Shown here piece by piece: positions 15,767 through 26,878 of a stretch of 64,000 nt of DNA. How positions within the stretch are numbered: position 1 is the stretch's first letter; the number at the start of each line of letters is the position of its first letter. The position numbers and the translations under genes were made by a program. Source of the DNA: Alphaproteobacteria bacterium. Its GTDB lineage: Bacteria; Pseudomonadota; Alphaproteobacteria; GCA-2731375. The stretch lies in contig CBDDBZ010000037.1 of NCBI GenBank assembly GCA_965225945.1, positions 352,001 through 416,000 on the forward strand. The letters run 5' to 3'. Below the pieces are notes generated by a model. It was given only the letters and a program-made list of their open reading frames with translations. It was not told the DNA's origin and did not search any database.

Positions 15767-15834
15767 AAAAAGGGGTCAGAAAAAGGGGTCATTGTACTTT
15801 ATTCGGCGGAACGGCCGAAAAAGCAGAATGACCC
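15767..15834. repeat. REP-like imperfect hairpin forming the 5' exon of intron A
   Basis: Tandem AAAAAGGGGTCA, then arms GGGTCATT..TTCGGC / GCCGAA..AATGACCC, cut by the intron. Confidence 0.6.
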
Positions 15835-16193
15835 GTGCGCCGGGAGGCCGGCGAGGAGTAGCGGATGAGAGAGCCGTACGGTGAAGGATTAGCCATCCAC
15901 ACCGGCCCCGAGTCATGCGCCTGCGGTCCGCGAGGGCGAGGCGAAGCGTTGACAGGGGTACATGTGGGCTGGGTATTGAGCCGCGAAAAATGCGCATTCG
16001 AGGCGCCGACCCTGTGGGTCTATGGGGAAGGCCACACCGACGAGCGCGCATTGGCGAGCGCTCGGAGGGCCTTGCGCGGTCGTAGACCCCACGCACGCAT
16101 GGAAATCGCCTGAGCGGAAACCGGGAGATCTCTCGAGTGGCCGTCCTTGCGTTTGCGCGGTCCGCATCGGGAAGGCCCGAAGGGCCGTAGCCG

Positions 16194-16926
16194 ATGACGC
16201 ACGCTCGAGAGAAGTCAGATTTGCCCATAGTACCTGGGAAGCCGACGAACAAAGCCTTGTGCGAGGCGGCGGAGCCGGTGGAGGGAAGGGGCGGAGCCAA
16301 GGGGAACGTGGGTCAGCAACGCAGGCGCCGGACGCGGAGTCGGGAAAGCCTGTCACAGGGGCTGGAGCGCGTACGAGAAGCGGCGAGACGAGATGGGAAA
16401 CTAAAGTTCACCGCGCTGCTGCACCATGTCGATGTCGAACTCCTTCGGGCCTCCTACCTGGCGCTGAAGCGCGACGCGGCGCCCGGAGTGGACGGCATGA
16501 CGTGGCAAGAGTACGGCCAGGATCTGGAGCAGCGTCTCCCGAACCTGCATGGGCGGCTCCATCGGGGCGGCTACCGGGCTCTGCCGAGCCGGCGACAATT
16601 CATCGCGAAGTCGGACGGCTCGGCGCGGGCATTGGGGATCGCGGCCCTGGAGGACAAGATCGCCCATATGGCCGTGAGCACGGTGCTGAACCAGATTTAC
16701 GAGGAAGATTTCCTCGGGTTCAGCTACGGCTTCCGTCCGGGGCGCAACCAGCACGACGCGCTGGACGCGCTCGCGGTGGCGATCACCGAGCGCGAGGTGA
16801 ACTGGATCCTGGACGCCGATATATCCGGCTTCTTCGACTCATCCGACCAAAACTGGCTGAGAGGGTTCCTAGAGCACCGGATCGGAGATCGGCGTCTCCT
16901 CCGCCTTACGGCCAAGTGGCTGAAAG
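16194..16926 (+). pseudogene. Group II intron A reverse transcriptase/maturase, N-terminal part
   Basis: APGVDG, LGIAALEDK, SYGFRPGR, DADISGFFD; ends at KWLK where IS110 begins. Confidence 0.92.
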
Positions 16927-18108
16927 ATGGTATATCGCGGCGGCTGTGGCTGATGATATCAGGATGATGGCAGCCCCTTCACGCATGATCGATAAATCGG
17001 GGTCGCCCTGACCTCGAACATCGAGGAAGGAGCGATGACGATGGCACATTTCGTAGGTCTGGATGTTTCGGTGAAGGAGACGGCGGTATGCGTCGTCGAC
17101 GAGGTTGGCGAGGTGGTGTTGGAGCGGAAAGTGCCGACCGAGCCGGACGACATCGTCACGCTGCTGACCTCGATCGGCGTGGCCTATGGCCGGATCGGGA
17201 TCGAAGCCGGTCCGCTCTCGCAATGGCTGGTCAACGGTCTTGCCGCCGCCGGGCTGCCGGTTGTCTGCGTCGAGACTCGGCACATGAAAGCACTGCTCAA
17301 GGGGCAGCAGATCAACAAGAGCGACCGCAACGATGCGCGCGGCATCGCCCAGATGATGCGGGTCGGGCTGTTCAAGCCGGTGCATGTGAAGACCCTGGTT
17401 GCCCAGGAGCAGCGGATGCTGCTGACCAGCCGCAAGCTGCTCCAGAGAAAACTGCTCGACGTCGAGAACGATCTACGCGGGACGCTGCGCAACTTCGGTC
17501 TCAAGGTGGGCATGGTCAGCACCCGCGGGTACGAGGCGCGGATCCGCGAGCTGGTCGAAGACTTTCCGAAGCTGGCCGCTATCGTGGAACCGCTGCTCAC
17601 CGTCCGGCGAGTGATGCGCCAGCAATTCGCGGTCCTCCACAAAATGGTGCTCGACACGGTCCGCCATGACCCGGTCTGCCGACGGCTCATGACGGCACCC
17701 GGCGTCGGCGTGGTCGTCGCGCTGACCTACCGGGCTACCATTGATCAGCCGCAGCGCTTCGTTCACTCCAGGGCGGTCGGCGCGCATGTCGGCCTGACGC
17801 CGAAGCGCTTCCAGTCCGGCGAGATCGACTATGATGGTCGCGTGTCCAAGTGCGGCGACAGCATGCTCCGCACGATGCTGTACGAGGCCGCGCAGTCCCT
17901 CCTCACCCACGGCCGGAAATGGTCCTGGCTGAAGGCGTGGGGCATGCGAGTGGCCCAGCGACGTGGCATGCGCCGTGCCATCGTCGCCGTCGCTGTGGAA
18001 CGGCGTGCAAAGTTGACCCCTGTTGAGGGGTGATCGGCGTCCAAATTTGACCCCCTGAGCCTGGCTAGTCCAAGTCACCTCGTTTTTGGGCGGACGAGGT
18101 GGTGGGGG

Positions 18109-19620
18109 ATGTTGGTCGTGGAGACGATAGCGCGGATCCGGCGGGAGTATTTCGTCAAGGGGAAGCCGATCAAGGAGATCGTGCGGGACGTGAAGGTCTC
18201 GGGCAACACGGTGCGCAAGGTGATCCGTTCGCAGGCGACGGCGTTCACCTACGACCGGCGGGTCCAGCCGATGCCGAAGCTGGGGCCGTGGATGGCCGAG
18301 CTGGAGCGGATGCTGGAGGCCAACGAGACCAAGTCGAAGCGGGAGCGGCTGACGCTGCTACGGATCTCCGAAGCCCTCGAGGGTCTGGGCTATGGCGGCG
18401 GCTACGACGCGGTGCGGCGCTACGCCAAGGCGTGGCGGTGGCGCCGTTCGGCATCGACGGCGCAGACCTATGTGCCGTTGGTGTTCTCGCCGGGCGAGGC
18501 CTATCAGTTCGACTGGAGCCACGAGTACGTGGTGCTGGCGGGGGTGACGACCAAGGTCAAGGTCGCGCACGTCCGGCTGTGCCACAGCCGAATGTTCTTC
18601 GTCCGCGCTTATCCGCGCGAGAGCCAGGAGATGGTGTTCGACGCCCACGACCGGGCATTCCGGCTGTTCCAGGGTGCCTGCCGGCGAGGCATCTACGACA
18701 ACATGAAGACGGCGGTGCAGACCGTCCTCATCGGCAAGGAGCGCGCGTTCAACCGGCGCTTCGTGCAGATGTGTGGCCACTACCTGGTCGAACCGACAGC
18801 ATGCACGCCGGGAGCGGGATGGGAGAAGGGGCAGGTCGAGAACCAGGTCGGGATCATCCGCGGTCGGTTCTTCACCCCGCGGCTGCGCTTCAAGACCTAC
18901 GACGAGCTCAACGCCTGGCTCTTGGACCAGTGCGTCGCCTACGCCCGGCGTCATCCCCACCCGGTGTTCAAGGACAGGACTGTCTGGCAGGTGTTCGAGG
19001 ACGAGCGTCCGTCCCTGGTCGGCTATCGCGGGCCGTTCGACGGCTTCCACGCGGTCCCGGCGTCGGTGTCGAAGACCTGCCTGGTGCGCTTCGACAGCAA
19101 CAAGTACAGCGTGGCGGCGCGCGCCGTCGGCCGTCCGGTCGAGGTCCATGCCTACGCCGATCGCATCGTCATCCGCCAGGACGGCGAGATCGTCGCCGAG
19201 CATGCCCGGCGCTTCGGCCGCGACCAGACCGTCTATGACCCGTGGCACTACGTGCCCGTGCTGGCGAGGAAGCCCGGTGCGCTTCGTAACGGCGCGCCGT
19301 TCAAGGACTGGGCGCTGCCCGGCGCCCTGGGTCGCGTGCGCGTCCGGCTCGCCGGCCACGACGACGGCGACAGGCAGATGGTCGAGATCCTCACCGCCGT
19401 GCTGGCGGATGGGCTGGCGGCGGTGGAGGCCGCCTGTGCCGAGGCGCTCGCTGGCGGCGTGTGCAGCGCCGACGTCGTGCTCAACATCCTCAATCGTCGG
19501 CGCCAGCCGTCCGAGACGGCGCCGATCCCGACGCCCGCGAACCTGCGTCTTCGCTTTGAGCCGGTGGCCGATTGCACCCGCTACGACCGCTTGAGGGGGG
19601 TCGGCCATGGAGCGCCATGA
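18109..19620 (+). CDS. istA: IS21 transposase IstA
   Basis: [19 protein letters not shown]. Confidence 0.95.
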
Positions 19621-20335
19621 GGTCCTGGAGATGATGGCCGCACTCAAGCTCGCCGGCATGCGCGACGCGTTCGACGAGGTGCTCGCCGACGGCCTCAAGC
19701 GCCAGCATCCGATGCAGCGAATCATCGGCGAGCTGTTGAAGGCCGAGATCGCCGACAAGCAGGCGCGATCCATCAAGTACCAGATGAGTGGCGCCAAGCT
19801 GCCGCTGGCCAAGGAGCTGGCCGACTTCGACTTCACCGACACCCCGGTCAACGAGCCGCTGGTCCGCGAGTTGGCGGTCGGCGGCTTCCTGGCCAACCAG
19901 CGCAACGCCGTGCTGATCGGCGGCACCGGCACCGGCAAGAGCCATCTCGCCGTCGCCATCGCGCGGGCCTGCATCCGCGATGGCGCCCGGGGCCGCTTCT
20001 TCAACGTCGTCGACCTGGTCAACCGGCTCGAGGCCGAAGCCCGCGCCGGCCGCCAGGGCCGGCTCGCCGATCAGCTGGCCCGGCGCGACCTCGTCATCCT
20101 CGACGAGCTCGGCTACCTGCCCTTCGCCCAAACCGGAGGCCAGCTGCTGTTCCACCTCGTCAGCCGGCTCTACGAGCGCACCTCGATCATCGTCACCACC
20201 AACCTGACCTTCGGCGAATGGCCGTCCGTCTTCGGCGACGCCAAGATGACCACCGCGCTCCTCGATCGTCTGACGCACCACTGCGAGATCATCGAGACCG
20301 GAAACGACTCCTGGCGCTTCAAGAATCGGTCCTAA
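19607..20335 (+). CDS. istB: IS21 helper ATPase IstB
   Basis: [23 protein letters not shown]. Confidence 0.95.
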
Positions 20336-20697
20336 AGGCAACCGATCCACCTGCCGCCCGGTCGCCCAGGTGGGCCCACAGGAACCTCCCACGCGCGGTC
20401 CGCCGCCAGCCGCGTGGTGGGCGCGTCGGCCCGCGCGCGGGCCCCTCCTATGGACTACCTGTACGACCTCCGCCGTGCATCCCCAAAGGGGTCAACATTG
20501 CACGCCGATAGGGGGTCAATGTTCAACGCCGATTGACACCGTCGCGAGGCGCCTGGCCGTAGTTCTGCACCGCATGTGGGTCGACGGCACCGAGTTCCGC
20601 TGGAGCAACGGCCCTGCTGACGCCGTCAAGGCGGCTTGAACCTTCGACTGTACTGACAAGGAGATCAACGAGTTCTGCTTAGGCAGAGAGATGTCCT

Positions 20698-20848
20698 CAC
20701 GGGGACGACGGGTGGGGTGAGTTCGTAATGTCGGTAGACCCTGCCGCTGACCGGCGGCAAGGACGCGCGAAAGATTGAACCGCCTCATCCTCTGATCCCA
20801 TCATGAGGTGGCCACGCGCCAACCTCGAAGAGAAGCAAGAGCCCCGTG
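20698..20848 (+). ncRNA. Putative IS1111 bridge/seek RNA with target- and donor-binding loops
   Basis: Outer stem CACGGGG/CCCCGTG; segments TAATGTCGG and GAAAG match the target flanks, ATCCCATC and AGAGAAG match the donor junction; each pair flanks a hairpin. Confidence 0.75.
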
Positions 20849-20857
20849 CGGCAACAT

Positions 20858-22197
20858 GATTGAGCAACCTGATGTGTGGAAATTCGGAACGCCGTTGATC
20901 AGTCATCCTCTGCTTTCCAAGTGATGTAGGGTTTTTCGGTGGTTTCCCATTTCTCGTCGATTTCGACGAGGATGGCGGTGACCAGGCGTTCGAGCGAGGC
21001 CTCGTTGGGAAAGACCCTGACCTTTACGGTGCGGCGCTTGATCTCCTGCTGGATGGATCGCTCCATGGGGTTCGAGGTTCGCATGCGCTTTTGGTGGCGC
21101 TCGGGCAGGGCGAAGACGGCGAGGCCCTCGGGGATCGCCGCCTCCAGCCAATCGGCGAGCTTGGGGGCGCTATCGCGGTAGGCCGCCACCAGGTGGCCCA
21201 GCTCGGCCTCGGCGGCCTTGCCGTCGGCGGCATTCCAGACCCGGCGCAGCTCCTTGCCGATGGCCTTTCGGATGGCGAGGTTGGGGGCGTGATGGATGGC
21301 GTTTTGAGCCAGATGGTACTGACAGCGCTGCCAGACGGCGCCGCCGAGGACGGCCTTGCGCGCGGCGCCGAGGCCTGGATGATCATCGGAAACGATATAG
21401 GCGACACCGCGCATGCCACGGGCAACCAGGGTCTCCAGGAAGGCGCGCCAGTGCACTTCGGCCTCGGAGAGCGCACAGGAAACACCGAGCACCCGGCGGC
21501 GCTGGTCGGGGCCGATGCCGATCACCGAGAGCACGGCGGCGTCGCGCACCACGCCACCCTCTCGGACTTTCTCATAGCGCGCGTCGAGGAGCAGGTAGCG
21601 GATCTCGCCCAGCGGCCGGTTGCGCCAGGCATCCAGCTCCCCATCCAAGAGCTTGGCGGCGCGGCTGACCTGGCTCGACGACAGGCTCTCCAGGCCGAAC
21701 TCGCGCATCACCGCCTCGGCGTCACGGGTGGAGACGCCTTTGATATACATCTCCGCCACGGCCAGCATGACAGCGCGGCAGGAGCGCCGTCCGCGCTCCA
21801 GGGCTTGGGGGTAAAAAGGCGCCTCATGACCGGCGGTCTTGGGAACCTCGAGCCTCACCGTACCGGCCGGGGTGTCGATCTTCTTGGGTCTGGTGCCGTT
21901 GGCGTATCCCCGCCGCTCGGGCGTGCGCTCATAGTGGCCGGCGCCCAAGAACCTCTCCCGCTCGATCCGCATGGCGAGATTGAAAAGGCCGGCGAAGACC
22001 GTCGCCATGTTCTCGCTACCGCCTTCGATCAATTGTTCCACCAAAGCCTCGACAGCGCTATCCTGGTCTTTCCGCATACTGGTTCTCCATGTTTGTTTGG
22101 ACGCTTTCATGGATAACCAAAATGACGGATCGCCCCGCGCCGGGGTATACCCCGGCGCGGGGCGAAGCCAAATTTCCAGACCTCACGCTACACAAGC
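20858..22197 (-). mobile_element. IS256-family element inserted in the IS110 right end
   Basis: Imperfect IRs of about 30 bp; 8-bp target duplication GGCAACAT (20850-20857, 22198-22205). Confidence 0.92.
20899..22077 (-). CDS. IS256 transposase
   Basis: GVSTR, LDARYEKVR, SDDHPGL, WQRCQYH, RTSNPMER. Confidence 0.93.
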   Translation of the reverse strand: MRKDQDSAVEALVEQLIEGGSENMATVFAGLFNLAMRIERERFLGAGHYERTPERRGYANGTRPKKIDTPAGTVRLEVPKTAGHEAPFYPQALERGRRSCRAVMLAVAEMYIKGVSTRDAEAVMREFGLESLSSSQVSRAAKLLDGELDAWRNRPLGEIRYLLLDARYEKVREGGVVRDAAVLSVIGIGPDQRRRVLGVSCALSEAEVHWRAFLETLVARGMRGVAYIVSDDHPGLGAARKAVLGGAVWQRCQYHLAQNAIHHAPNLAIRKAIGKELRRVWNAADGKAAEAELGHLVAAYRDSAPKLADWLEAAIPEGLAVFALPERHQKRMRTSNPMERSIQQEIKRRTVKVRVFPNEASLERLVTAILVEIDEKWETTEKPYITWKAEDD

Positions 22198-22285
22198 GGC
22201 AACATCCGCCAGTGCGGAACGACGTGAAGAAGGAATATGGCATGACGTAACCAGAAAGGGCTTGACCGAGGACGCGATAGAGAAG

Positions 22286-23066
22286 CCGGCATTATGCAAG
22301 ATGGCAAACTCACGGTCCCGGAGCAGGGGACGCCACAGGGCGCGGTGCTCTCACCGCTGCTCTCCAACGTCTACCTGCACTATGTCCTGGACTTGTGGGC
22401 GCACCAATGGCGTCGGCGCCATACCCACTGCGACATGGTCATCGTCCGCTACGCGGACGACTTCGTCGTGGGCTTCGAGTACCGGGAAGACGCGCTTGCC
22501 TTCCGGGCGGCATTGGAGGAACGCTTGCGGGCTTTCGGCCTCGCGCTGTTCGCGGAGAAAACCCGGCTCATCGAGTTTGGGCGGCACGCCGCGAAAAGTC
22601 GGAAGGGCCGAGGCGACGGCAAGCCGGAGACGTTCGACTTCCTGGGCTTCACGCACATCTGCGCGAAGGACCGGAAGGGACGGTTCCAACTGCGACGCAA
22701 GACGCGGCGTAAGCGCATGGGGGCGAAGCTCGGGGAGATCAAGCGCGAACTCCTCCGGCGACGGCATCAGCCAATCGCCGAGCAGGGCCGCTGGCTGGCA
22801 TCGGTGGTGCGAGGCTACTTCGCGTACTTCGCCGTGCCGACCAACGCTCCGGCCCTGAATGCCTTCCGCTATCAGGTCGCCCGGTTCTGGCTGAAAGCGC
22901 TCCGGCGCCGCAGCCAGAACGACCGCACGACCTGGAAGGTCTTTGCCAAGCTGGTCGAGCGCTGGCTTCCGCCAGTGACGATCCTCCATCCCTGGCCGTC
23001 GAAACGCTTCTACGTCAAATACCCGAGGCAGGAGCCCGGTGCATTAGCAGTGCACGCCGGGATCTG
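22286..23066 (+). pseudogene. Group II intron A reverse transcriptase/maturase, C-terminal part (no endonuclease domain)
   Basis: GTPQG, VRYADD, FDFLGF, HPWP; the frame runs into domain V. Confidence 0.92.
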
Positions 23067-24947
23067 GTGCGCCAGGCGAACTGGCAGAAGGTAGGGGGTG
23101 CAAGTCCCCCGGAACGAAGGAGTAACCGAACCACGTTTCTCCGCGAGCCGTGCGTTGGCTCCCGTGAGGGGGCAGGCGAAGCGTCGGTAGCGGCATGGAT
23201 GGGCAGGGCTATTGAGCACCGTAAAAGCGATGGTCCGGGGTGCCGAGGCTTTCAGATCGGTCGAAGGCAATATCGCAGGCGTCGTTTTGGTGAGATGTCG
23301 GCGAGCCCCGCGGTGTCAGAGAACCCATGCACGTTCGCACGCCTTCTGTTGGGACCCTGGGAGGTCTTCAAACTGCCCCGGTTGTCGTAAAGGGGCCGCG
23401 TAGGGAATGGAGAAAACCGAAGCCTATGATGAACGGTTTGAAGAAGTCGGATGAGGCCATACGACCTGTGAGGGCGGCGAACAAGGGAGCGCGAGCTTCT
23501 GCGGAGTCGCCGGAGGAAAGGGCCTCAACCAAGGGGAATCCGGATTGCCAAAGCACGCGCCGAACCCAGTGTCGGGTAAGCGTGCCACAGGCGGCGGCCC
23601 GGATACGGAAAGCTGCAGAGAGAAACCCGAAGGAACGTCTCACTGCGCTCTTCCACCACATTACGCCGGACGCGCTCGGTGCGGCCTACTTCGCATTGAA
23701 GAAGGACGCAGCAGCCGGTGTCGACGGCGTTACGTGGGACATGTACGGCGAGGGTCTGGATGAGCGCCTGCTCGACCTGCACCGGCGCCTGCACAGAGGG
23801 GGAGCGTACCGGGCGCCGCCGGTTCGGCGGGTAGAGATACCCAAGCCGGACGGGGGGACACGACCGCTCGGGATCGCGGCGCTGGAGGACAAGGTCGTCC
23901 AGAAGGCGGTTGTGGATGTGATCCTGACACCGATCTACGAGGTGGTGTTTCTTGGCTTCAGCTACGGGTTCCGACCGGGGCGGGGGGCGCACGATGCGCT
24001 CGATGCCCTGGCCTTCGGGATAAAACGGCGCAAGGTCAGCTGGATAGTCGATGCAGACCTCCGGGCGTACTTCGACACGATCCCGCGGGATTGGTTGATC
24101 AGGTTCCTAGAGCACCGCATCGGAGACAGGCGGGTCATCCGTCTGATCTGGAAATGGCTGAACGCCGGCGTCATAGAGAGTGGGTCATGGGCAGATACGG
24201 GTATGGGCACGCCGCAGGGGGCAATAGTCTCCCCCGTCTTGGCGAACGTGTTCCTGCATTACGTGCTCGACTTGTGGTTCCACAAGAAATGGCGCCCGAA
24301 CGTCCCGGATGGCGAAGCGATCATCGTCCGTTACGCTGACGATATCGTTGTCGGGTTCCAACACAAGCGGGATGCGGAGCGGTACCTCCGCGACGTTCGG
24401 GAGAGGCTGGCCCGGTTCGGTCTCAGCCTCCACCAGGACAAGACCCGCCTCGTGGAGTTTGGCCGGTTCGCGGATTTGAACCGGCGCCAGCGCGGGGTGG
24501 GCAAGCCGGAGACTTTCGACTTTCTGGGCCTCACGCACTATTGCACGACGACCCTGAGAGGACGCTTTCGGCTTGGTCGCAAACCGGTCGCCAAACGGGT
24601 CAACAGGACCCTGGCGCGCATCGACGAGGTGCTCCGCAAGCGCTGGCACCACGACATCTGGGAAGTTGGTAGGTGGCTGGGGCGAGTCTGCAATGGCTGG
24701 CTCAACTACTTTGCCGTCCCAGGGTCAGGCCGGTTCATCCGTGCGTTCCTCCGCAGGCTGCAACGCCGGTGGATGCGGGCGCTACGCCGCCGGTCCCAGC
24801 GAGCCCGATTTAGTTGGAAGCGACTGGAGCGCATGACCGAAATCCTGTGGCCACGCGCCTCCATCCGCCACCCATGGCCGGACCAGCGGTTTGCCGTCAA
24901 GCACCCGAGGTAGGAGCCGGATGGTTCAACGACCACGTCCGGATCTG
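23067..24947 (+). mobile_element. Group II intron B copy 1 (class E-like); domain VI missing
   Basis: GTGCG at 23067 directly after intron A domain V; EBS1 CAGATC at 23253-23258; own domain V at about 24914-24945. Confidence 0.9.
23426..24913 (+). CDS. ltrA: Group II intron reverse transcriptase/maturase (intron B1)
   Basis: AAGVDG, PKPDG, SYGFRPGR, GTPQG, RYADD, FDFLG; no HNH domain. Confidence 0.95.
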   Translation: MMNGLKKSDEAIRPVRAANKGARASAESPEERASTKGNPDCQSTRRTQCRVSVPQAAARIRKAAERNPKERLTALFHHITPDALGAAYFALKKDAAAGVDGVTWDMYGEGLDERLLDLHRRLHRGGAYRAPPVRRVEIPKPDGGTRPLGIAALEDKVVQKAVVDVILTPIYEVVFLGFSYGFRPGRGAHDALDALAFGIKRRKVSWIVDADLRAYFDTIPRDWLIRFLEHRIGDRRVIRLIWKWLNAGVIESGSWADTGMGTPQGAIVSPVLANVFLHYVLDLWFHKKWRPNVPDGEAIIVRYADDIVVGFQHKRDAERYLRDVRERLARFGLSLHQDKTRLVEFGRFADLNRRQRGVGKPETFDFLGLTHYCTTTLRGRFRLGRKPVAKRVNRTLARIDEVLRKRWHHDIWEVGRWLGRVCNGWLNYFAVPGSGRFIRAFLRRLQRRWMRALRRRSQRARFSWKRLERMTEILWPRASIRHPWPDQRFAVKHPR

Positions 24948-26878
24948 GTGCGCCAGGCGAACTGGCAGAAGGTAGGGGGTGCAAGTCCCCCGGAACGAAG
25001 GAGTAACCGAACCACGTTTCTCCGCGAGCCGTGCGTTGGCTCCCGTGAGGGGGCAGGCGAAGCGTCGGTAGCGGCATGGATGGGCAGGGCTATTGAGCAC
25101 CGTAAAAGCGATGGTCCGGGGTGCCGAGGCTTTCAGATCGGTCGAAGGCAATATCGCAGGCGTCGTTTTGGTGAGATGTCGGCGAGCCCCGCGGTGTCAG
25201 AGAACCCATGCACGTTCGCACGCCTTCTGTTGGGACCCTGGGAGGTCTTCAAACTGCCCCGGTTGTCGTAAAGGGGCCGCGTAGGGAATGGAGAAAACCG
25301 AAGCCTATGATGAACGGTTTGAAGAAGTCGGATGAGGCCGTACGACCTGTGAGGGCGGCGAACAAGGGAGCGCGAGCTTCTGCGGAGTCGCCGGAGGAAA
25401 GGGCCTCAACCAAGGGGAATCCGGATTGCCAAAGCACGCGCCGAACACAGTGTCGGGTAAGCGTGCCACAGGCGGCGGCCCGGATACGGAAAGCTGCAGA
25501 GAGAAACCCGAAGGAACGTCTCACTGCGCTCTTCCACCACATTACGCCGGACGCGCTCGGTGCGGCCTACTTCGCATTGAAGAAGGACGCAGCAGCCGGT
25601 GTCGACGGCGTTACGTGGGACATGTACGGCGAGGGTCTGGATGAGCGCCTGCTCGACCTGCACCGGCGCCTGCACAGAGGGGGAGCGTACCGGGCGCCGC
25701 CGGTTCGGCGGGTAGAGATACCCAAGCCGGACGGGGGGACACGACCGCTCGGGATCGCGGCGCTGGAGGACAAGGTCGTCCAGAAGGCGGTTGTCGGGAT
25801 CGCGGCGTGGAGGATCCTGACACCGATCTACGAGGTGGTGTTTCTTGGCTTCAGCTACGGGTTCCGACCGGGGCGGGGGGCGCACGATGCGCTCGATGCC
25901 CTGGCCTTCGGGATAAAACGGCGCAAGGTCAGCTGGATAGTCGATGCAGACCTCCGGGCGTACTTCGACACGATCCCGCGGGATTGGTTGATCACGTTCC
26001 TAGAGCACCGCATCGGAGACAGGCGGGTCATCCGTCTGATCTGGAAATGGCTGAACGCCGGCGTCATAGAGAGTGGGTCATGGGCAGATACGGGTATGGG
26101 CACGCCGCAGGGGGCAATAGTCTCCCCCGTCTTGGCGAACGTGTTCCTGCATTACGTGCTCGACTTGTGGTTCCACAAGAAATGGCGCCCGAACGTCCCG
26201 GATGGCGAAGCGATCATCGTCCGTTACGCTGACGATATCGTTGTCGGGTTCCAACACAAGCGGGATGCGGAGCGGTACCTCCGCGACGTTCGGGAGAGGC
26301 TGGCCCGGTTCGGTCTCAGCCTCCACCAGGACAAGACCCGCCTCGTGGAGTTTGGCCGGTTCGCGGATTTGAACCGGCGCCAGCGCGGGGTGGGCAAGCC
26401 GGAGACTTTCGACTTTCTGGGCCTCACGCACTATTGCACGACGACCCTGAGAGGACGCTTTCGGCTTGGTCGCAAACCGGTCGCCAAACGGGTCAACAGG
26501 ACCCTGGCGCGCATCGACGAGGTGCTCCGCAAGCGCTGGCACCACGACATCTGGGAAGTTGGTAGGTGGCTGGGGCGAGTCTGCAATGGCTGGCTCAACT
26601 ACTTTGCCGTCCCAGGGTCAGGCCGGTTCATCCGTGCGTTCCTCCGCAGGCTGCAACGCCGGTGGATGCGGGCGCTACGCCGCCGGTCCCAGCGAGCCCG
26701 ATTTAGTTGGAAGCGACTGGAGCGCATGACCGAAATCCTGTGGCCACGCGCCTCCATCCGCCACCCATGGCCGGACCAGCGGTTTGCCGTCAAGCACCCG
26801 AGGTAGGAGCCGGATGGTTCAACGACCACGTCCGGATCTGCGCGGGGGGTGCGCAGCAATGCGCATTCCTACCGTAAC
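24948..26878 (+). mobile_element. Group II intron B copy 2, complete
   Basis: GTGCG at 24948; near-identical to copy 1; domain V, then domain VI CGCGGGGGGTGCGCAGCAATGCGCATTCCTACCGTAAC ending in AC. Confidence 0.92.
25307..26806 (+). CDS. ltrA: Group II intron reverse transcriptase/maturase (intron B2), 4 aa longer than B1
   Basis: Same motifs as B1; VVDVIL replaced by VVGIAAWRIL. Confidence 0.92.
   Translation: MMNGLKKSDEAVRPVRAANKGARASAESPEERASTKGNPDCQSTRRTQCRVSVPQAAARIRKAAERNPKERLTALFHHITPDALGAAYFALKKDAAAGVDGVTWDMYGEGLDERLLDLHRRLHRGGAYRAPPVRRVEIPKPDGGTRPLGIAALEDKVVQKAVVGIAAWRILTPIYEVVFLGFSYGFRPGRGAHDALDALAFGIKRRKVSWIVDADLRAYFDTIPRDWLITFLEHRIGDRRVIRLIWKWLNAGVIESGSWADTGMGTPQGAIVSPVLANVFLHYVLDLWFHKKWRPNVPDGEAIIVRYADDIVVGFQHKRDAERYLRDVRERLARFGLSLHQDKTRLVEFGRFADLNRRQRGVGKPETFDFLGLTHYCTTTLRGRFRLGRKPVAKRVNRTLARIDEVLRKRWHHDIWEVGRWLGRVCNGWLNYFAVPGSGRFIRAFLRRLQRRWMRALRRRSQRARFSWKRLERMTEILWPRASIRHPWPDQRFAVKHPR

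Follow-up and report, generated by a model that had tools for sequence, protein, structure and literature searches.

A predicted bridge RNA of an IS1111-group element fits a genomic repeat exactly and a group II intron reverse transcriptase gene approximately

Bridge RNAs (seekRNAs) of IS110 and IS1111 elements have been known since 2024, and so the kind itself is not new. Members of the IS1111 group have transposases of 330-350 aa with a GL-P----S(T)G motif, and their seekRNAs, as characterised in passages of PMC11187229, are encoded downstream of the transposase, carry the complement of the target top strand 5' of that of the bottom strand, and come in a short form of 70-100 nt and a long form of 145-170 nt. 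Close IS1111 relatives are naturally redirected by changes in the guide segments (Siddiquee et al. 2024, PMC11187229), and for 93% of IS1111 elements a bridge RNA has been predicted, its donor guides often lying in a multi-loop (Durrant et al. 2024, PMC11208160). Known targets include the terminal repeats of Tn21-type transposons for IS4321 and IS5075, and REP sequences for ISPpu9, ISPpu10 and ISPa11 (PMC11208160, PMC12288879).

The locus described here comes from a window of 64,000 nucleotides, by which we mean the whole stretch of DNA that was analysed, on contig CBDDBZ010000037.1 of Alphaproteobacteria bacterium GCA_965225945.1, where an insertion sequence (IS) sits within the reverse transcriptase (RT) gene of a group II intron, intron A (Table 1). 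The element can be placed in the IS1111 group of the IS110 family from its transposase, its ends and its manner of insertion. The transposase has 350 aa, matches PF01548 at residues 7-153 (E 5.7e-19) and PF02371 at residues 215-295 (E 1.6e-20), scores 249.7 bits against NF033542 'IS110 family RNA-guided transposase' (cut-off 140), has the GL-P----SG motif in the form ..HVGLTPKRFQSGE.., and shows homology in its C-terminal domain to the solved recombinases ISCro4 (E 1.7e-13) and IS621 (E 1.3e-12). Intact copies in the same genome measure 1459 bp, with 108 nt ahead of the start codon, the 350-aa ORF and 298 nt past the stop, the long non-coding region 3' of the transposase making the right end longer than the left. 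The subterminal inverted repeats, of 7-17 bp in the group, are of 7 bp here and of 9 bp (TATCGCGGC/GCCGCGATA) in most homologues. Insertions all take the same position and orientation within a specific sequence, and nothing but the common core is duplicated: all 12 right junctions in the genome read AAG and then CCGACATT, CCGGCATT or ACGACATT, and all 11 left junctions end in AG. A conserved TTGAC lies 19 nt from the right tip, with TATATC as the best −10-like hexamer at 22-nt spacing, and may serve as the −35 box of a junction promoter.

Table 1. Features of the IS1111-group element, its predicted RNA and the surrounding intron A, in window coordinates
Feature	Position	Strand	Remarks
Intron A, 5' part, with N-terminal part of RT	15821..16926	+	ORF 16194-16926, cut after W-L-K
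Left core copy AAG	16924..16926	+	donor and target share AG only, family-wide
IS1111-group insertion sequence	16927..22285	+	ends taken from 10 intact copies of this genome
Left subterminal inverted repeat TATCGCG	16933..16939	+	partner CGCGATA at 22273-22279
Transposase, codons 1-319 and two bases of the next	17035..17993	+	resumes at 20546-20639
Nested IS21-type element	17994..20538	+	istA 18109-19620, istB 19607-20335
Transposase, C-terminal 31 codons and stop	20546..20639	+	
5' hairpin TTCTGC-TTAG-GCAGA	20673..20687	+	conserved, upstream of 20698
Predicted bridge/seek RNA body	20698..20848	+	151 nt, closed by P1, CACGGGG 20698-20704 / CCCCGTG 20842-20848
Target-binding stem-loop	20710..20790	+	81 nt; stem, internal loop with both target guides, apical hairpin
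Long stem GGGTGGGGTGAGTTC/GAACCGCCTCATCC	20710-20724 / 20777-20790		
Right target guide AAUGUCGG	20727..20734	+	complement of top strand CCGACATT right of the insertion point
Apical hairpin TGCCGC/GCGGCA	20742-20759		
Left target guide GCGAAAG	20767..20773	+	same as top strand left of the insertion point
Right donor guide GAUCCCAUC	20794..20802	+	7/9 positions against G-ATGGTATA (core G and IS left end)
Hairpin 2, GAGGUGG..CCAACCUC (GAGGT/ACCTC)	20805..20826	+	between both donor guides
Left donor guide AGAGAAG	20829..20835	+	same as IS right tip and core, 7/7
Nested IS256-type element	20858..22195	-	transposase 20899-22110, minus strand; PF00872, 297 bits
Displaced right-end tail of the IS1111 element	22206..22285	+	TTGAC 22262-22266, right subterminal repeat, tip GATAGAG-AAG
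Intron A, C-terminal part of RT	22286..23094	+	begins CCGGCATTATG

The left junction reads TGGCTGA-AAG/ATGGTAT at 16917-16933 (here and below a slash within a site marks the insertion point) and the right junction GATAGAG-AAG/CCGGCATTA at 22276-22294, with the core at 22283-22285. Joining of both flanks in silico recovers the RT frame (..TAKWLKAGIMQDG..), and the rejoined intron A RT aligns without gaps over a 124-residue block with that of a second intron type, intron B (..IWKWLNAGVIESG..). Intron A has an Rfam RF02005 match at 15868-16089 (177.9 bits), and its 5' boundary at about 15821 is the start of homology with the two other intron A copies of the genome.

At 5359 bp the window copy of the element is far longer than the intact ones because two further IS are nested inside it. 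The IS21-type element is bounded by a 7-bp duplication, CCGTCGC, at 17987-17993 and 20539-20545, and intact IS1111 copies run unbroken across that point. The IS256-type element is flanked by GCGGCAACAT at 20848-20857 and 22196-22205, where intact copies join 20857 to 22206, and so the right end of the window copy at 22285 is displaced by 1.35 kb relative to theirs. This interruption of the 3' non-coding end was absent from an earlier note on the locus that was made from the sequence by eye of a model. The IS256-type element entered at the exact 3' edge of the RNA closing stem, and its direct repeat (GCGGCAACAT) is of 10 bp; duplications flanking IS256 are usually of 8-9 bp and thus shorter. 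Since the IS21-type element splits the 350-aa transposase and the IS256-type element parts the RNA from the right end, the window copy is dead in cis, a defective copy of an otherwise putatively active element.

The non-coding DNA at 20698-20848 very probably encodes the bridge RNA (seekRNA) of this IS1111-group element, with a genomic repeat as its cognate target and the intron as a secondary one. Folding analysis reproduces the fold that the earlier note had described for it (minimum free energy −66.7 kcal/mol, z = −3.35, equalled by 0 of 200 shuffles), and the strings and coordinates named there, in the RNA and at the junctions, were all found in place. The segment TAATGTCGG at 20726-20734 is, as had been claimed, the reverse complement of the right intron flank CCGGCATTA at 8 of 9 positions, the remaining one being a G:U pair. 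The same note had picked out ATCCCATC at 20795-20802 as a donor segment and GAAAG at 20769-20773 as the left target match, GAAAG being the only part of the left guide that fits the intron site. The left target guide has the sequence of the top strand and so can pair with the bottom strand. On the donor side AGAGAAG is present in 33 of 34 aligned loci. The RNA may start earlier than 20698, because the hairpin upstream of it is conserved with compensating changes, reading TCTGCC/GGCAGG or TCCACC/GGTGGA in homologues (read by eye from the alignment, and uncounted). Rfam 15 offered no relevant family, the only hits in the window at gathering score being three group II introns, and a search of 20540-20900 at E up to 10 likewise returned nothing relevant.

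Relatives were gathered by a transposase scan with one genome per species, which found 559, and the best 80 of these (65-95% identity) were fetched. In an alignment of 39 distinct homologue RNA regions 98.2% of the cells are paired, against 32.7-53.3% when the partners are slid, and 10 of the 29 pairs show changes on both sides. Neither the paired share nor the covariation score was reached by any of 500 shuffles, and the number of pairs with both-side changes was reached by 34 of the 500. P1 retains at least 7 of 8 pairs in all 39 sequences, with variants such as CGCAGGG/CCCTGCG; the target-arm helices 2-4 are 94.9-98.2% paired with 6 pairs changed on both sides, and hairpin 2 (helix 5) is 99.6% paired with both-side changes in 4 of its 7 pairs.

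In the same homologue alignment the target-guide columns vary and the scaffold does not. A regular expression for the scaffold matched 62 places in the 91 loci scanned, and only those were scored; 49 of them had both flanks (the other 13 lacked a flank or contained an N) and represented 29 distinct guide pairs. The right guide pairs with its cognate flank at 7.17 of 8 positions, the permuted mean being 6.04 (sd 0.15), and the left guide is identical to its flank at 3.47 of 6 positions, the permuted mean being 2.48 (sd 0.15). Neither score was reached in 5000 guide-flank permutations, which used distinct guide pairs and ignored kinship of the elements. Individual loci illustrate this: guide and flank both read GCGCTAAAG in L078 and GCCCGAAAG in L024, the guide CCACTTAG stands against the flank GCACTTAG in L047 and L063, and in L089 and L091 a guide complement of CGGACAAAC meets flanks of CGGACAAAT and CGGACAAAC respectively. 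Covariation of guides with targets across homologue insertion sites, which the earlier note had put forward as a check, is thus found (29 guide pairs, 49 sites). The reading of its four segments as target guides and putative donor guides holds too, the target columns varying with the flanks and the donor columns staying constant with the IS ends, and domains, motif, inverted repeats and guide-flank covariation together bear out its proposal of an IS1111-type recombinase and guide RNA pair.

These sites also revise the core. AG ends 48 of the 49 sites, the exception being one CAA site, and the base before it tracks the left guide (TAG with TAG in 11, AAG with AAG in 34, discordant in 3 of the 49 sites), while the IS tip always reads ..GAGAAG, even where guide and site read TAG. 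The shared core is therefore AG (that of IS621 is CT), and the third base of AAG is part of the programmable segment. An AAG core had been proposed before; AAG does flank both junctions of the window copy, but only AG is shared across the family. At TAG sites with an AAG tip it follows that the left junction retains the target base and the right junction the donor base. The donor guides are near-constant in relatives, as are the IS ends, which leaves little variation to test. One position can be checked: opposite LE position 6 the right donor guide has C mostly in relatives with ATGGTGTA, and U here with ATGGTATA, and copies in this genome that read ATGGTGTA retain a U able to pair with G. For pairing on the donor side this is weak, if consistent, evidence.

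In this genome the element is present in 11 full copies, with one right-end fragment besides. The 349-350-aa ORF is intact in 9 of the 11, the C26 copy having a disrupted N-terminus, and the nine copies with an intact ORF, which do not include the window copy, carry the same RNA. Six of the 11 lie in a genome-specific repeat of about 85 nt and three in intron A. The repeat-borne copies sit at GCGAAAG/CCGACATT (four) and, with one mismatch each, at GTGAAAG/CCGACATT (one) and GCGAAAG/ACGACATT (one); one more is in a related repeat at CGATAG/CCGACATT, one in unique DNA at GGAAAG/CCGACATT, and the three in intron A are at TGAAAG/CCGGCATT. Together GCGAAAG and AAUGUCGG fit the repeat junction GCGAAAG/CCGACATT at all 15 positions, and against the intron site they offer GAAAG and 8 pairs, of which one is G:U. 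The cognate target is thus the junction of the repeat, and the intron RT site is a near-cognate secondary site: because the guides fit the repeat exactly and the intron only approximately, the element is not specialised on the intron, which is a secondary target.

In the 6.27 Mb searched no empty GCGAAAGCCGACATT and no empty AAAG+CCGRCATT are left. Near-cognates that stay empty are four members of the repeat with C for the G of the AG core (AAC), GCGAAAG/CCGACATC and GCGAAAG/CCGACAGT, and four sites CCGAAAG/CCGACGTT, which match at 6 of 7 positions on the left and have one G:U on the right. The defects of the empty sites are an AAC core, a mismatch at right position 7 or 8, or a G:U at position 6. 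Since sites that look as good as that of the intron, the four with CCGACGTT and one with CCGACATC, stay empty, match counts alone fail to predict which sites are used.

A profile of the target repeat finds it at 30 places in the genome, with the sequence ..GAGTCTCGGGGGTACACCGGACGTGA.C.GAGCGAAAG/CCGACATTCGG.. (among others in L094, G000:C34:81321-83321). In places it stands directly after the right end of an element with a tyrosine integrase and an IS91-like component, and by our own reading it adjoins about 5 of the roughly 25 copies of that element; the repeat could not be shown to be part of it. A related repeat, GGCCCGACGGGGAGTCT.CCCCCGAAAG/CCGACGTTGG, in places faces the 85-nt repeat in inverted orientation. 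An Rfam scan of four empty target repeats gave no family, a search of 20 related genomes gave one weak match, in one genome of the same genus, and the repeat profile found nothing in the best 80 of the 559 related loci.

Some copies deserve separate mention. The right-end fragment (L012, G000:C37:60701-60962, minus strand) is an orphan with the whole RNA body and the right tip and without the transposase gene, and it adjoins the CCGACATTCGG flank. The C29 copy (L011, G000:C29:43159-44614) has a mosaic patch of 20 unique changes at alignment columns 1093-1300, which looks like the product of recombination with a relative. The patch spans the target loop and changes the guides to AAUGUCUG and GCAAAAG, which fit the site of that copy worse than the common guides do. 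The element occurs in several public samples. Contigs from 4 runs of public RNA libraries, from two studies, extend over it and over the RNA region within it, as at 1597-1868 of L002, a locus with an intact copy at 434-1892; contigs of this kind are silent on transcription, and no joined IS ends appear in them. At L002 1902 such contigs pass from the IS right end through a shared CGACATTCG into flanks unlike that of L002; one of these flanks is that of the C33 site, and another, absent from the 12 right flanks of the genome, suggests further insertion sites in related strains.

A working scheme can be proposed for how such an RNA would act. It would form a three-way junction, with the target arm at 20710-20790 and the donor guides on the junction strands flanking hairpin 2. 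The target arm would present the guide for the top strand, AAUGUCGG, first and that for the bottom strand, GCGAAAG, some 40 nt further 3', ending in the AG core, and the donor guides would match the junction between right and left IS end (..AGAG-AAG-ATGGTATA..). On the model of ISEc11, ISPa11 and IS621, the 350-aa DEDD/serine recombinase would bind the RNA, which would bring the excised circular IS and the target together for strand exchange at the AG core. The intron RT site may have come into use after the perfect sites had been occupied, or in parallel with them.

How the three intron copies arose is a separate question, on which the surroundings of intron A bear. The genome has only three copies of intron A, and in each of them the IS occupies the same base. 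Downstream of the RT stop at 23094 the window has two intron-B units head to tail (23101-26862, period 1881 bp), each with an RF02005 match and an RT ORF of 528 or 532 aa, and the 1881-bp spacing recurs on contigs C38 and C31, where the arrays have three units. The homologous site of intron B, TGGCTGAACGCCGG at 24155-24168 (plus strand) with a second copy at 26048-26061, reads W-L-N-A-G, has no AG core and is uninterrupted, all as first noted for this DNA. Some 14 further intron copies in the genome (66-70% identity) have the intron B reading and are likewise untouched.

The strongest competing account is that the three intron copies go back to one insertion, after which the composite of intron and IS was copied, whether it was duplicated or retrohomed with the help of an RT in trans. 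We regard this as somewhat unlikely. In its favour, no uninterrupted intron A is present in this genome, nor was any close intron A, empty or filled, found in 32 other genomes of the family. The three copies share the 5' boundary at about 15821 with differing upstream flanks, as is the case for mobile introns; the divergence of the introns (about 5 per 1880 nt) resembles that of the IS (6 per 1459, window copy against C24); and the window and C24 copies share the junction to the following intron B unit with 100% identity over 501 nt. Against a single hit, the window copy shows 1 difference from C37a, which lies in the repeat, 6 from the C24 intron copy and 29 from the C29 intron copy, the window copy and C37a sharing variants at columns 666 and 1166, and C24 and C38 sharing others at 825 and 922. 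Because the three intron-borne IS copies are in this way not each other's nearest relatives, independent hits are favoured, though on small numbers, and with every AAAG+CCGRCATT site filled three independent hits would be expected. Moreover the RT is broken in every intron A copy, and the intron B RTs with which it was compared are only 52% identical (257/492). The bolder version, in which retrohoming with an RT in trans copied the composite and the bridge-RNA element hitch-hikes on a retroelement, seems to us improbable; if true, it would explain the IS at the same base in every intron A copy. In a weaker form of that reading, the IS would have knocked out every member of one intron lineage independently, by way of a near-cognate site that tolerates G:U.

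The earlier note had raised another view, in which the conserved W-L-K-A-G region of group II intron RT genes would be the speciality of the element or its lineage, a parasite of retroelements; this view is not supported. The occupation of all three intron A copies at the same site speaks for it, as do 2 of the best 80 related loci, L045 and L051, whose fetched flanks hold a group II RT and which lie in or beside such an intron, the right guide of L045 fitting its own flank (AAGGGACGGAAC against AAGGGACGGAGA). But the guides match the repeat at every position and the intron only in part, 8 of the 11 full copies and the right-end fragment lie outside introns, the other intron copies of the genome are untouched, and 78 of the 80 loci have no RT in the fetched flanks. 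In L045 and L051 themselves the RT is uninterrupted and the IS is at other positions, and in L045 the element is single-copy in its genome. With homologue targets mostly outside introns, the outcome that the note itself had named as fatal to the idea, a specialist is hardly credible; the caveat attached to it at the outset, that the intron site may be an off-target, was right. For location, the L045 element (1140-2617) has its right end about 40-60 nt from the RT stop, and that of L051 (1-1400) its left end about 60 nt from an RF02005 match. In the papers searched no insertion of an IS110-family element into a group II RT gene is described. Finally, that the matches are due to chance and the 3' non-coding end is merely a structured terminator or leader with no guiding role is scarcely conceivable, for although the left guide matches the intron site over no more than 5 nt and 171 of 20000 mononucleotide shuffles of the 298-nt end hold a pairing 8-mer and GAAAG as good as those for the intron site, the 8-mer with GCGAAAG for the repeat target arose in 9 of the 20000, both guide columns change with the homologue flanks, and the surrounding helices are kept by compensatory changes.

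With a bridge RNA whose cognate target is the repeat as the preferred reading, the locus is a natural data set for a programmable recombinase, giving 12 insertion junctions for one guide pair in one genome. The junctions span exact, one-mismatch, G:U-wobble and short-left-arm sites, with near-cognates left empty beside them, and the 29 natural guide variants of the relatives indicate that the base before the AG core is programmable. Data of this sort help to predict the off-targets of IS1111-type recombinases. The locus is also a case of one mobile element disabling all copies of another, here a group II intron lineage.

Overall the closest known counterparts are the seekRNAs of ISEc11, ISPa11, ISKpn4 and ISPst6, with which this one shares its place 3' of the transposase, the order of the guides and their position in the loop of a long stem, as well as forms of about 80 and 150 nt (here a predicted arm of 81 and whole of 151), subterminal inverted repeats, the GL-P----SG motif and the redirection of guides among relatives. 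It differs from them in the sequence of transposase and scaffold and in being known from sequence alone, and its target is a genome repeat where theirs, in the parts of PMC11187229 drawn on here, are attC sites, Pseudomonas REPs or Tn21 ends. With IS621 it would share a bispecific RNA whose target and donor loops each read both strands around a dinucleotide core, and a right donor pairing that is discontinuous (PMC11208160). In contrast the IS621 RNA, as set out in passages of that paper, lies in the left end, has the opposite guide order and simple internal loops, whereas here the RNA lies in the right end with the donor guides in a multi-loop, and the proteins are similar in the C-terminal domain only (E 1.3e-12). 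Like IS4321/IS5075 and ISPpu9/ISPpu10/ISPa11, as far as the sections cited above describe them, the element takes one position and orientation in a repeated sequence, sometimes within another mobile element; unlike theirs, the target repeat here matches no Rfam family and has its like in 1 of the 20 related genomes searched.
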